DNA from: an uncultured virus (IMG/VR IMGVR_UViG_3300020531_000001)
Lineage: Duplodnaviria > Heunggongvirae > Uroviricota > Caudoviricetes
Virus record (IMG/VR): IMGVR_UViG_3300020531_000001
Span: 62,001-126,000 of that record
Direction: 5' to 3' (one strand)
Length of the DNA stretch: 64,000 nucleotides
Every line of letters begins with the position of its first letter. The stretch's first letter is position 1. Shown here in pieces: positions 37,207 to 47,533 of this stretch. The position numbers were made by a program, and so were the translations under genes. The notes under the pieces were generated by a model. It was not told the DNA's origin, made no database searches, and worked only from the letters and a program-made list of their open reading frames with translations.

Positions 37207-37566
37207 ATGAAATGTTTAATTTGTGAGAAATCATTAGAGGGAAGACAGAAAAAATTTTGTAGTAGTAAATGTAAAAGTATGTTAGCTAATAATAAATTGC
37301 AAAATTATCAAGCACAGCAAACAAGGGGCAAGATAAGAAAAAAAAAGTTAATCGAAATGAAAGGAGGCTGTTGTGAAAAATGCGGTTATAATAAAAGTTT
37401 AGCAGCATTGTCTTTTCATCATTTGAATCCAAATCTTAAAAAATTTCATTTAGATATTAGAAATCTTTCCAATAGGAAGTGGGAAATGATTATTGAAGAA
37501 TTTAATGAATGTGAATTGTTGTGTTTTAATTGTCATATGGAATTACATCATGGTTGCGAATGGTAG
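37207..37566 (+). CDS. HNH homing endonuclease
   Basis: CLIC...FCSSKC; GGCCEKCGY, LSFHHLNP, CELLCFNCHMELH; TAAATA at 37196. Confidence 0.85.
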   Translation: MKCLICEKSLEGRQKKFCSSKCKSMLANNKLQNYQAQQTRGKIRKKKLIEMKGGCCEKCGYNKSLAALSFHHLNPNLKKFHLDIRNLSNRKWEMIIEEFNECELLCFNCHMELHHGCEW

Positions 37567-37843
37567 GGGTGGAGGGATTCGAACCCCCACTCAATCGATT
37601 ATGCTTACCACTATAGTTTTCACTACCCTTTCGGTTTGTGGTCTGGACTATCCCTTAATCTTCAGCATTACCTGTTAAGACTGAACTATTATAGTCTCTG
37701 CACGTCTCTCTTTCGAGATTTCGCTCAAGATTGGCATCAGCATTACCTGTTAAGCGTTCCTTGAATTTAAGTTCTGCTAACTTATTATTTCTAACAAGAA
37801 GACCCGTTAAAGTCGACTGCTTTGACCATTAAGCTACACCCCT
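37561..37843 (-). tRNA. tRNA-Ile2(CAU) interrupted by a group I intron after U33
   Basis: Spliced: AGGGGTGTAGCTTAATGGTCAAAGCAGTCGACT|CATAATCGATTGAGTGGGGGTTCGAATCCCTCCACCCCTACCA; anticodon arm resembles bacterial ileX. Confidence 0.85.
37604..37810 (-). mobile_element. Group I intron (207 nt, no ORF)
   Basis: P1 GACU/GGUC with U.G pair; AAATTCAAGGAA; GCAGAGACTA; AAGGGATAGTCC; terminal G. Confidence 0.88.
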
Positions 37844-42091: not shown

Positions 42092-42727
42092 CTAATTAAT
42101 GCAATAGAATTTTTTATAAACAATTTTCTCTAAACCAAAGTTATTAAGATTTGGAAGTATTGAATTTCTAATAAAGTTTCTTCTGTATTTGGTATCATTG
42201 TTTGTAGGATCTTCTACAACAAATTCCCAAAGGTTATTATTATCAATGTAGTCTTTTATATTCGACTTTTTTGTTTTCAAAAAAGGACGAATCATTTTAT
42301 GATTATTATTATGAAATTTAGTTGCGATTGGAATGGGTGTGTATTCTGGACAACCTTTTAATGTATTCATCAAATATGATTCAACAGCATCATTGAGATG
42401 ATGACACACAATAATATCTTTGTTTAGACTAGAAAAAAATTTAAGTCTTTCTTTTCTAAGATGATCTTCAATTCCATGTTTGACATTATCATTAAAGTTA
42501 GTTCTTTTACCCAAGACTAATTTGATATTATGTTGCGAGCAAAATCTTTCAACAACTCTCTGCATTTTTGCATTTGTTGATTGGAAGTTATGATTGAAGT
42601 GACAGGCAGATACTTTATCTTTGTATAACCTTGATAGCAAGTGTAAACATGCTATAGAATCAATTCCTCCACTTACAGCAACACAAAAATCTTCTTTAGG
42701 AATTAATGATCTATCAAGTCTAATCAT
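42092..42727 (-). CDS. tilS: tRNA(Ile)-lysidine synthetase, catalytic domain only
   Basis: AVSGGIDS PP-loop, HFNHN, CHHLNDAVESYLMN, IRPFL, EDPTN..Y.RNFIR. Confidence 0.9.
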   Translation of the reverse strand: MIRLDRSLIPKEDFCVAVSGGIDSIACLHLLSRLYKDKVSACHFNHNFQSTNAKMQRVVERFCSQHNIKLVLGKRTNFNDNVKHGIEDHLRKERLKFFSSLNKDIIVCHHLNDAVESYLMNTLKGCPEYTPIPIATKFHNNNHKMIRPFLKTKKSNIKDYIDNNNLWEFVVEDPTNNDTKYRRNFIRNSILPNLNNFGLEKIVYKKFYCIN

Positions 42728-42928
42728 ATCAATACATGTTTCCGCTGAACATGTTGCCTTTGGATACATATGTTCCATCAACCTTAGTCAATGTATTACT
42801 ATTTCCATAAAGACTACGAGAAACAATAACACCTCGACTTGAAGGTTTCTTAAACGATTCTGATCTCCAACTGCTTTTGATTACTTTGATAGGTGCTTTG
42901 AATTTGTTTGACATGGCTTTATAATATC

Positions 42929-43606
42929 TTAGTTTTTTATTAGTTTCCAACCACATTTAGTCTGTAGTTGTCTTCCTTGTTTTAAATGATTGAATGCACC
43001 TATAGATAATCCTGTTTTTTTAGACATATCTGTCAAAGATAATTCCAATGTTTCTAAAGTATACACATTAAACCATTTAATTTTATTGAGTTCGTTTTTT
43101 GTTAAACTCATTTTATTTTTAGAATCTTCTTTGTGTGTATAAGATGGTCTGACATATCCTTTTTGTTTTTTTATCTGCCAACTTTTTTTAGCCCAAGCAC
43201 TCCTATTTTCTGTTGTAGCTTTTACCATGTTATTTAAATTTTTATTATTATGCCAATATGTTTTTAAAGATTTTGATATTTTTAATTTAGTTTCTTCTGA
43301 TGGTATACCACCATTACCACCCTCTGTTAGATTATAACCATTAGGAGAAATAGTATTGTGGTTATTTATATAATAAATTTCTTTATCGCAACACTCTTTA
43401 ATTGAATTACAAGTTTCTAAAACTTCCCAATCAAAGTTATCAATACCATACTTACGTATTGCTTGTTTAAAAAGATAAAAATAATGTTTATTAGAAGGTG
43501 AATTTGCTTTACATAAATGCGCTTTCTTTCTTTCTTCTAAAGTTTTTGTAGTATATCCTATATACTGTTTTCCATTAATTTTATTAGTAACCATATATAC
43601 AATCAT
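42929..43606 (-). CDS. GIY-YIG homing endonuclease (Seg-like) with NUMOD3-type motifs
   Basis: IVYMVTNKINGKQYIGYT...R...H; GYNLTEGG; SEETKLKISKS; late promoter. Confidence 0.9.
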   Translation of the reverse strand: MIVYMVTNKINGKQYIGYTTKTLEERKKAHLCKANSPSNKHYFYLFKQAIRKYGIDNFDWEVLETCNSIKECCDKEIYYINNHNTISPNGYNLTEGGNGGIPSEETKLKISKSLKTYWHNNKNLNNMVKATTENRSAWAKKSWQIKKQKGYVRPSYTHKEDSKNKMSLTKNELNKIKWFNVYTLETLELSLTDMSKKTGLSIGAFNHLKQGRQLQTKCGWKLIKN

Positions 43607-45511: not shown

Positions 45512-45582
45512 TTGCGAGGGGAAGGAATTTAACCTTCACTCTAGACTATGGGCCTAGCGATCTCCGTATGATCCCTCTCGCA
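45512..45582 (-). pseudogene. Degenerate tRNA-Met(CAU)-like cloverleaf
   Basis: TGCGAG acceptor, GATC D-stem, CTAGG-CCCATAG-TCTAG, GAAGG-TTAAATT-CCTTC; lacks U33, TTC and CCA. Confidence 0.6.
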
Positions 45583-46522: not shown

Positions 46523-47121
46523 TGGTGGACGCGAGGAGCATCACACTATGGTTTTCACCACCAGATTTCTCTGTTTGTGCGCTGGACTATGCCTTTACCT
46601 TAGTATTTTTACTTTAGGTAGGTGATTATAGTCTCTACACCTTCTCATTATCTGAGCTTGGCTCGGCATTGGGACGGATATTATTCCAGACCGTTCACCG
46701 AATTTACACCTTACTAACTATTCGTTTCCAAATAGCAGACCCTCATTAAGTTGAACTCCTGTCCTCTATCAACTTACATTAACCTTCAAACATGCTTATA
46801 TTGTCTCGTTAAGGTGAGACTTTCCTGTTAGGGACGACCGATTTCTCTGCCATCCTCCACCAATGTATTAGACAGAATACATACTGTTTTATTACCTGTT
46901 TTGTATCCAAGAGCAGAGCAGGTTTATCTCTTGGCGTATTTGCTTAGGCAGCTAAAGCAAGTTCGCCTTGTGGGGCGAAAACGCGATTAGCAATACCACG
47001 CACAGCGTTAACAATTCTGTTGCCGTTTATGTTTTTTTGATCAGCTTTTTAAGAGGCCAACTGATCAACCTCTACATGCTAGTTGAATGCTTATCAATAC
47101 AGTCGAAACCAGAACGCGCCC
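46523..47121 (-). ncRNA. ssrA: tmRNA interrupted by a group I intron in the T-loop
   Basis: 5' GGGCGCGTTCTGGTTTCGAC; acceptor GGGCGCG/CGCGTCC-ACCA with G3.U70; GCATG...CATG helix; tag ORF 46944-47024 ending ELALAA*; spliced T-arm AGGAG-TTCAACT-CTCCT. Confidence 0.92.
46539..46748 (-). mobile_element. Group I intron (210 nt, no ORF) in tmRNA
   Basis: AAATTCGGTGAAC, GCCGAGCCAAG, GTAGAGACTA, AAGGCATAGTCC, terminal G; removal restores a 7-nt T-loop. Confidence 0.88.
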
Positions 47122-47129
47122 GATAAAAT

Positions 47130-47207
47130 TGGTTGCGGGTTTCGGAATTGCACCGAAACTACTTCTGCTTATGAGACAGATCCAGCACTACTACTGGTTG
47201 ACCCGCG
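47130..47207 (-). tRNA. tRNA-Met(CAU), initiator-like but atypical
   Basis: C1.A72 mismatch (CGCGGGT/ACCCGCA-ACCA); TCTGT-CTCATAA-GCAGA; T-loop TGCAATT; lacks three anticodon-stem G-C pairs. Confidence 0.75.
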
Positions 47208-47429: not shown

Positions 47430-47533
47430 TGTCAAAGAACTTTGATTATTGATTCGCTTTCGAATCAACCATCAAGACAATCGATTCGATTGAAGTGATG
47501 CAAGAATCATAACATATTTATCTTACATGTCAA
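47430..47533 (-). promoter_or_regulatory. Sigma70-type promoter with boxB/boxA-like leader for the RNA operon
   Basis: TTGACA (47528-33), 16 nt, TATGAT (47506-11) with TG extension; hairpin 47449-47468; GTTCTTTGACA 47430-47440. Confidence 0.65.

Follow-up and report, generated by a model that had tools for sequence, protein, structure and literature searches.

The window analysed here, a stretch of 64,000 nucleotides, lies within a 138.7-kb linear virus record (CheckV completeness 66%; G+C 31.8%). It contains a tmRNA gene on the minus strand (47121-46523; 599 nt including an intron), surrounded by open reading frames that match phage families: rIIA, rIIB, ribonucleotide reductase, thymidylate synthase and a virion protein. 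The gene is located between those for tRNA-Met and tRNA-Tyr inside a tRNA cluster, in which ARAGORN gives the order tRNA-Glu, tRNA-Met, tmRNA, tRNA-Tyr, tRNA-Gly. The tmRNA is probably transcribed together with its tRNA neighbours as part of a shared transcript starting from a sigma-70-like site upstream of the cluster (Table 1). Such sites in the promoter region number 4 versus 4.7 in shuffled sequences, which is not above chance. A search of the record, which is 66% complete, turned up no gene for SmpB or for ribosomal protein S21.

Several smaller elements accompany the cluster. The tRNA-Met(CAU) gene (47130-47207, minus) is called by ARAGORN and not by the Rfam tRNA model, and its D-arm looks odd by eye. 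A weak tRNA-like match of 31.3 bits at 45513-45581 (minus) has no ARAGORN call. A free-standing GIY-YIG endonuclease ORF (42929-43606, minus) lies within the tRNA region, and a PP-loop ORF (42092-42781, minus; PF01171, E 3.7e-38), which we take to be TilS-like, is found nearby.

Table 1. Features of the tmRNA locus and of the second intron-split gene (window positions)
Feature	Positions	Strand	Description
tmRNA exon 1	46749..47121	-	373 nt; 5' acceptor strand, pk1, tag frame, downstream pseudoknot region, 5' T-stem and all 7 T-loop bases; RF00023
Group I intron	46539..46748	-	210 nt, ORF-less; T-loop insertion following U60 (position 8), last base omega-G; RF00028, helices and intronless allele
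tmRNA exon 2	46523..46538	-	16 nt; 3' T-stem, 3' acceptor strand with U70, discriminator A, CCA; identical in L021
Internal guide sequence	46738..46744	-	intron nt 5-7 with exon 2 (P10); nt 8-10 with exon 1 (P1, U.G at the splice site)
P7 region	46584..46635	-	G-C pair 46633:46585; encloses the 3' strand of P3, and P8; P7 70/70 cells paired in 14 relatives
Tag frame	46944..47024	-	26 codons and TAA; resume codon GGC at 47024; end ELALAA; stop 46946-46944
Sigma-70-like promoter, extended -10	47506..47533	-	11/12 consensus; upstream of tRNA-Glu...tRNA-Gly
tRNA(CAU) gene with second group I intron	37561..37843	-	207-nt intron 37810-37604 after U33; RF00028 47.6 bits, E 2.7e-12

The identity of the gene is clear from the Rfam model RF00023, which scores 78.4 bits (gathering score 47; E 1e-28), although ARAGORN run on the window does not call it. 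Removal of the intron (46748-46539) leaves an RNA of 389 nt. In this RNA the acceptor stem forms 7/7 pairs, including G3 (47119) with U (46529), which is the G3.U70 pair, and the discriminator A is followed by an encoded CCA with which the gene ends at 46523. The T-stem (46760-46756 with 46538-46534) forms 5/5 pairs, and does so only once 46748-46539 has been removed. Because the T-arm and the acceptor stem both need removal of the intron, splicing is structurally required for tmRNA function. The exon 1 part contains pk1, then the resume codon, then an open tag frame down to the stop; pk1 is conserved with compensatory changes (by eye) in two other loci, L379 and L308. A match to the permuted-tmRNA model (27.8 bits) was rejected, as it consists of the end of the upstream tRNA-Met together with exon 1. 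The complete tmRNA with G3.U70 and a CCA end, and the T-arm that forms only after removal of 46539-46748, had both been proposed in an earlier note on this DNA, and both descriptions stand; an intronless allele in a related phage, L021, gives the same junction. The covariance models named there as a check gave a divided result: the tmRNA model lies well over its gathering score, while the group I model RF00028, matched over its full length, reaches 43.2 bits (E 1.5e-9), under its gathering score of 50. For bacterial tRNA introns, 18-20 bits have been used as the threshold (Williams 2020, 10.1101/2020.01.27.920355).

The intron is preceded by U and ends in G. All of the pairs (56/56) in its 14 helices, P2 to P9.1, form, in part by construction, as the helices were chosen by eye on the same sequence. 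For this reason their upkeep in 14 related introns is the stronger evidence. P2, P3, P4, P7 and P9.1 are kept, with two-sided changes: P2 is paired in 91/98 cells with 49 two-sided changes, P3 in 63/70 cells with 23, P4 in 84/84 and P7 in 70/70, and P5a, P8 and P8a align poorly. The G-C pair in P7, here 46633:46585, is the guanosine-binding site of group I introns. The guide sequence pairs through intron nt 8-10 with the last three bases of exon 1 and through nt 5-7 with the first three of exon 2. Intron nt 11 would pair with the exon of L021 and not with the present one, in which it makes an A.C mismatch in P1. P1 has only 3-4 pairs and is weak, with a calculated stability of -0.3 kcal/mol with the present exon versus -3.4 with that of L021. 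The intron contains no credible ORF for an endonuclease, its 210 nt being taken up by the helices.

Exon 2 starts at C61, and not with the last loop base (nt 60). In 88 rows of the alignment published with PMC11915505 (Nawrocki, Petrov and Williams 2025; papers given by PMC number are cited from extracts), exon 2 opens with the last loop base where the intron is at position 7, and at C61 in a single row. Since exon 2 starts at C61 here as it does in that row, JAGFJE010000179.1, the insertion after U60 corresponds to the published T-loop position 8. A position-7 splice site would need a loop base after omega-G, where there is none, and other G's taken as the intron end give abnormal loops by eye. 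The 210-nt group I intron that the earlier note had placed in the T-loop at 46539-46748 is borne out, with boundaries that match both the intronless allele and the P1/P10 pairing; that the subsite is the rare position 8 had gone unremarked. Taken with the self-splicing reported for the C. botulinum tmRNA intron (PMC2729099), this anatomy suggests that the intron very probably self-splices at 46749/46538.

Related phages provide natural controls. A search with a 5' pattern gave 23 viral loci, comprising seven near-identical copies, one other intron-form tmRNA, 14 other tmRNAs (T-arm unbroken in 13, one cut short) and one false match. In the intronless L021 allele the 7th loop base is joined directly to the same exon 2, which fixes the splice junction and the 26-codon tag. 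When the neighbouring rIIB protein was used as a probe, 16 loci were found, seven of which carry the intron at 100% identity; its presence in seven other viral contigs shows that it is not a one-off assembly error. The contig of L021 appears again among these loci as L377, with an rIIB protein 81% identical, an intronless tmRNA at the same place and an exon 1 that is 88.3% identical. A more distant intronless tmRNA (L379) is also among the 16. The tRNA introns of these phages are likewise polymorphic and come and go, which is how mobile introns would be expected to behave. In some relatives, tRNA genes of the cluster hold introns of about 200 nt (L376:15379-15649, L377:15702-15975, L383:3582-3865) that are absent from the window, and a tRNA-like element (tRNA-Asp according to ARAGORN, with a 12-nt insertion) just after tRNA-Tyr in L374-L377 is absent from the window.

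Intron-form tmRNA was found at 13 of 43 loci in one pattern scan and at 2 of 116, both with the intron at position 7, in a second. Two further viral groups have the intron form at position 7, one represented by L001, on a 416-kb contig, and the other by L024/34/35/44/56/65; where seen, their tags are of 28 and about 34-35 residues. A search of INPHARED yielded five records with only short pieces of the intron, and the two that were examined are tRNA-Leu introns.

The same comparisons bear on the proposal, made in the earlier note, that splicing gates phage-controlled ribosome rescue. The function of the RNA does need splicing, and splicing could be rate-limiting because P1 is weak. However, the intron has only the standard helices with no appended sensor-like domain, a close syntenic relative has the gene without an intron, and the tRNA genes of this cluster vary in whether they carry introns. 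A regulated gate is therefore highly improbable, and the proposal was not retained.

RNA libraries contain part of the gene. In two studies, contigs agree with exon 1 at every base over 46750-46972 (223 nt) and 46791-46975 (185 nt), although DNA carry-over is possible, and two more RNA runs contain a divergent allele with changes like those of L021 (by eye). No contig spanning the spliced junction was found in the four runs, in contigs with a depth of about 3, and the missing cover of the intron and of exon 2 is evidence in neither direction. It might be proposed that the intron splices poorly and that the RNA is dead or serves as a decoy for SmpB or ribosomes. The lack of a spliced contig, the fact that one exon-1 contig stops at 46750, a single base before the junction, and the A.C mismatch in P1 would agree with this, and there is a precedent in the truncated tmRNA of phage DS6A, which inhibits host tmRNA (PMC11915505). 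Yet the intron core, the guanosine site, omega-G, P10, G3.U70, CCA and the tag frame are all intact, and position 46750 is also near the mature 3' end, at a depth of about 3. A dead or decoy RNA is very unlikely.

The tag frame (26 codons, 47024-46947) begins with the sole G-starting codon of the frame that has UA at -5/-4, the last codon excepted, and this codon is aligned with the resume column of the Rfam model. In L021, L004 and L379 ARAGORN places the resume site at the equivalent codon, giving tags of 26, 29 and 22 residues. A shorter tag in the same frame was considered and set aside, as no downstream codon of the frame other than the last has the resume context. So was a 10-codon tag in another frame, which has a UA context and the end NLL (by eye), because of its distance from pk1, its want of LAA and the absence of an equivalent in L004. 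The 26-codon tag and the resume codon of the earlier note are thus confirmed by the UA context and by ARAGORN in L021, and the LAA end it had noted is kept. LAA is a common end of the ClpXP type. The last six residues are those of the 10-residue Verrucomicrobiales tag.

The length of the tag, which had been contrasted with about 10 residues in typical tags, is unusual in comparison with E. coli but ordinary among related viral tags. Viral loci with the same pk1 pattern (55; L386-L440) yield 36 unique tags, 30 of which have at least 20 residues (median 28). In Verrucomicrobiota loci from the same pattern all called tags (61/61) have 10 residues, and in 401 genomes of Verrucomicrobiota, 28 of which matched, the 26 called tags have 9-18. 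Cells of Omnitrophota are long-tagged too (25 loci, median 31 residues, with resume sites called in this analysis), so that the length of the viral tags may be inherited. The tag lies within the published range of ssrA tags, 8-35 residues, and in this is like the long tags described in PMC8012679. Long viral tags (20-35 residues) are spread over several unrelated sequence groups, and many are acidic. Five cellular tmRNAs labelled Omnitrophota or Planctomycetia (L243, L259, L269, L295, L303) seem to encode tags of 51-55 residues whose last two residues are not AA; these putative tags, with resume sites called here, exceed the 8-35 range cited in PMC8012679.

The earlier note had described the tag as amphipathic and had suggested that its extension could recruit a different adaptor or protease. 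In the hydrophobic-moment test, 697 of 5000 shuffled tags score as high as the tag itself, and the four homologous tags (697, 333, 1827 and 4240 of 5000) are all without significance, so that the amphipathic character is not above chance. A tag extension with a job of its own, such as binding a phage- or host-specific adaptor or another protease, or altering the half-life of tagged products, would fit the length of viral tags (30/36 with at least 20 residues, against 10 residues in 61/61 Verrucomicrobiota loci) and the fact that the four syntenic or close tags start with G-N/K-x-I and have a net positive charge. It also has a precedent in Mollicutes, where the longer tag of Mesoplasma is read by Lon and has an NYAFA-like end instead of LAA (PMC9382460). 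The present tag, unlike that of Mesoplasma florum, has no NYAFA-like end and keeps LAA, and thus gives no sign of a protease switch. Furthermore, six codons differ from L021, five of them changing the residue, all within residues 3-15, and one silent only (small numbers), while the C-terminal 11 residues are kept; the extensions differ among viral groups, and the length may be inherited, as the Omnitrophota tags indicate. A separate job of the extension is accordingly rather unlikely, and the suggested recruitment finds no backing in these comparisons.

The window contains a second group I intron. It splits a tRNA(CAU) gene (37843-37561) that was not called in default ARAGORN and Rfam tRNA scans and that has, by eye, an A1-U72 pair and an Ile2-like anticodon arm. 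This intron has the same guide-sequence core as the tmRNA intron and is collinear with it, and is its relative, though not the closest. An identical intron is present in L147. The TilS-like PP-loop ORF could turn the split tRNA(CAU) into a reader of AUA.

Viral relatives of the tmRNA intron were collected with a motif that it shares and that favours tRNA introns as relatives; at least 119 loci were found. Trees were built on the core only, with P1 and P2 left out, from 63 tRNA introns of 170-300 nt among the matches listed (one from an INPHARED locus), four introns from Verrucomicrobiota genomes and the position-7 introns. Rows were dropped for want of the core motif (five), for a bad boundary (one) and as a duplicate (one), and the last run also went without three long branches. 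In 3/3 trees the tmRNA intron falls into a clade (starred in the trees) which, among the matches listed, is dominated by U33 tRNA introns. The support of the clade is 95/88 (3/4 other members U33), then 96/84, then 99/95 (seven U33, one U34). The tmRNA intron is 66-75% identical over aligned columns to eight members of the clade, and the position-7 tmRNA introns form a separate branch (100/99). Monophyly of all tmRNA introns was rejected by the AU test in one data set (p 0.021, bootstrap unsettled) but not in the one that lacked the three long branches and had two more rows (p 0.199). Given these mixed results and the motif-biased sampling, independence from the position-7 introns is likely, but not established.

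The guide sequence points in the same direction as the trees. Its core, GGGUC, is found, among the matches listed, in 13/18 U33 introns, 0/46 U34 introns and 0/8 position-7 introns. The 4-base exon GACU occurs at only two sites in the 381-nt intronless tmRNA, one of which is the intron site, and the guide sequence fits the T-loop of the intronless allele. Introns that converge on one exon could, however, come to share a guide sequence independently. The viral tRNA-Leu(UAA) introns of L121 and L146 are inserted after U33, not at the classical U34, with a U33-type guide, and among the matches listed L121 ranks with the introns closest to that of the tmRNA. Like bacterial tRNA anticodon-loop introns, the tmRNA intron has their size, helix set, P9.0/P9/P9.1 end and U33-type guide core; it differs from them in being hosted by a tmRNA T-loop, with a P10 that fits exon 2 of the tmRNA. 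Of 21 anticodon-loop intron sites, four classical ones (Leu.3Ug, fMet.2Ug, Ile2.5Ug, Arg.5Ug) are marked IC3 (Williams 2020, 10.1101/2020.01.27.920355), and by likeness the same label may be applied to the tmRNA intron. Quite probably, then, the intron derives from a tRNA anticodon-loop intron, as judged from core and guide.

The best cellular matches of the intron are in 4/301 Verrucomicrobiota genomes (68-88 bits), all of them U33 introns of tRNA(CAU); matches in two other phyla (4/301 and 1/251 genomes) are weaker, at 40-62 bits. The best matches to exon 1 are in Verrucomicrobiales genomes, 84% over 94 nt (the best among at least 120 GTDB loci). From the 5' domain of the tmRNA and the stronger intron matches, in a comparison of Verrucomicrobiota with two other phyla, there is about an even chance that the host belongs to Verrucomicrobiota.

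Another conceivable source is sideways transfer from the published position-8 introns of Saprospiraceae. Row JAGFJE010000179.1 has the same subsite, the same guide core and the GACU exon. By eye, however, it differs in P3, P4, P7-P8 and P9 and is without the P9.0/P9.1 end that is common to the tmRNA intron and the tRNA introns. This comparison is of one row by eye, outside every tree, and the differences make such a transfer very improbable.

How a tRNA intron would have entered the T-loop is less certain. Reverse splicing needs a match of 4-6 bases, with which the guide match agrees, and its use for transposition lacks direct experimental proof in general (PMC3984707); the chances that it was the route into the T-loop are about evenly balanced. 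Mobility could alternatively be DNA-based, by means of a free-standing nuclease beside the gene that cuts intronless alleles (collaborative homing) or of a nuclease of relaxed specificity that caused the first ectopic insertion. A 193-aa HNH-like ORF (PHROG endonuclease, E 2e-15) is indeed found between tmRNA and tRNA-Tyr in three of seven sister contigs (L375:13317-13898, L374, L376), and the intron is 100% identical in all seven. The ORF is nevertheless absent from the present record and from the other four of the seven intron-bearing sisters, it accompanies a different tRNA-Tyr allele, which would fit a tRNA-Tyr target, and inspection by eye revealed no ghost tmRNA end. A nuclease would explain the spread of the intron better than its origin, and as a whole this route is unlikely, if conceivable.

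We consider it fairly probable that the locus is a standard phage tmRNA with a self-splicing intron after U60 that comes from the tRNA U33 family, is independent of the position-7 introns and is a near-neutral passenger. An intron of the U33 anticodon-loop family would have entered the T-loop separately from the common position-7 introns, most simply by reverse splicing, as the T-loop offered the same 4-base exon read by the guide. The precursor tmRNA would carry this compact group I intron after U60. Guanosine would attack at the U.G pair of P1, ligation of the exons would follow at omega-G, guided by P10, and the joining would restore the T-arm and the acceptor stem. The 389-nt RNA would be charged with alanine (G3.U70) and would use the SmpB of the host. 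Resumption at 47024 would add a tag of 27 residues, in which ELALAA would act as an ordinary ClpXP-type signal and the extension would be loosely constrained, while the intron itself would be close to neutral. The function of the tmRNA in rescue, its alanylation, SmpB binding, tagging and use of ClpXP are thus all predictions from sequence.

Intron-form tmRNAs are known in bacteria, with 883 unique sequences and insertions at T-loop positions 2, 3, 7 and 8; position 7 is the usual subsite, and in the extracts of PMC11915505 position 8 is reported only in Saprospiraceae. Like these, the present gene is a standard one-piece tmRNA with an ORF-less T-loop group I intron, U at -1 and omega-G. It is close in size to the smallest known (599 nt versus 545), and its intron is shorter than the reported mean (210 versus 293 nt; PMC11915505). 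It is unlike them in its phage record, its position 8 and the grouping of its core with tRNA anticodon introns. Phage-encoded tmRNAs are also known, 79 in PMC11915505 and others in huge phages (PMC7162821), and like them the present gene lies within a phage tRNA cluster. In the extracts of these two surveys, which used ARAGORN or RefSeq, neither the intron form nor long tags are mentioned for phage tmRNAs, and no phage intron-form tmRNA or long phage tag came up in the literature searches, although some of the 79 phage entries of PMC11915505 could be of the intron form. Because ARAGORN misses the present gene, and three viral groups with intron-form tmRNA emerged from two pattern scans, phage tmRNAs are probably undercounted. 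As the gene form was already known in bacteria, and tmRNAs in phages, no new system is added. New is the position-8 site outside Saprospiraceae, on a phage, together with the probable derivation of the intron from one in a tRNA and the survival of an empty allele.

A more far-reaching account can be put forward tentatively, at somewhat less than even odds. According to it, an ORF-less intron made a recent natural jump from U33 of a tRNA to U60 of the tmRNA on a 4-base guide match, a second independent founding of position 8, with donor-like introns and the empty allele surviving in related phages; the tags of aquatic phage tmRNAs, at 2-3 times the length seen in their closest cellular relatives, may serve to retune degradation in infection. 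If the jump is real, the surviving introns together with the empty L021 target allele provide a ready-made, direct test of transposition by reverse splicing. The locus suggests that phage tRNA clusters can be places where T-loop introns of tmRNA are recruited from the anticodon introns of tRNAs, and such recruitment would account for the 'multiple founding events' that PMC11915505 proposes.
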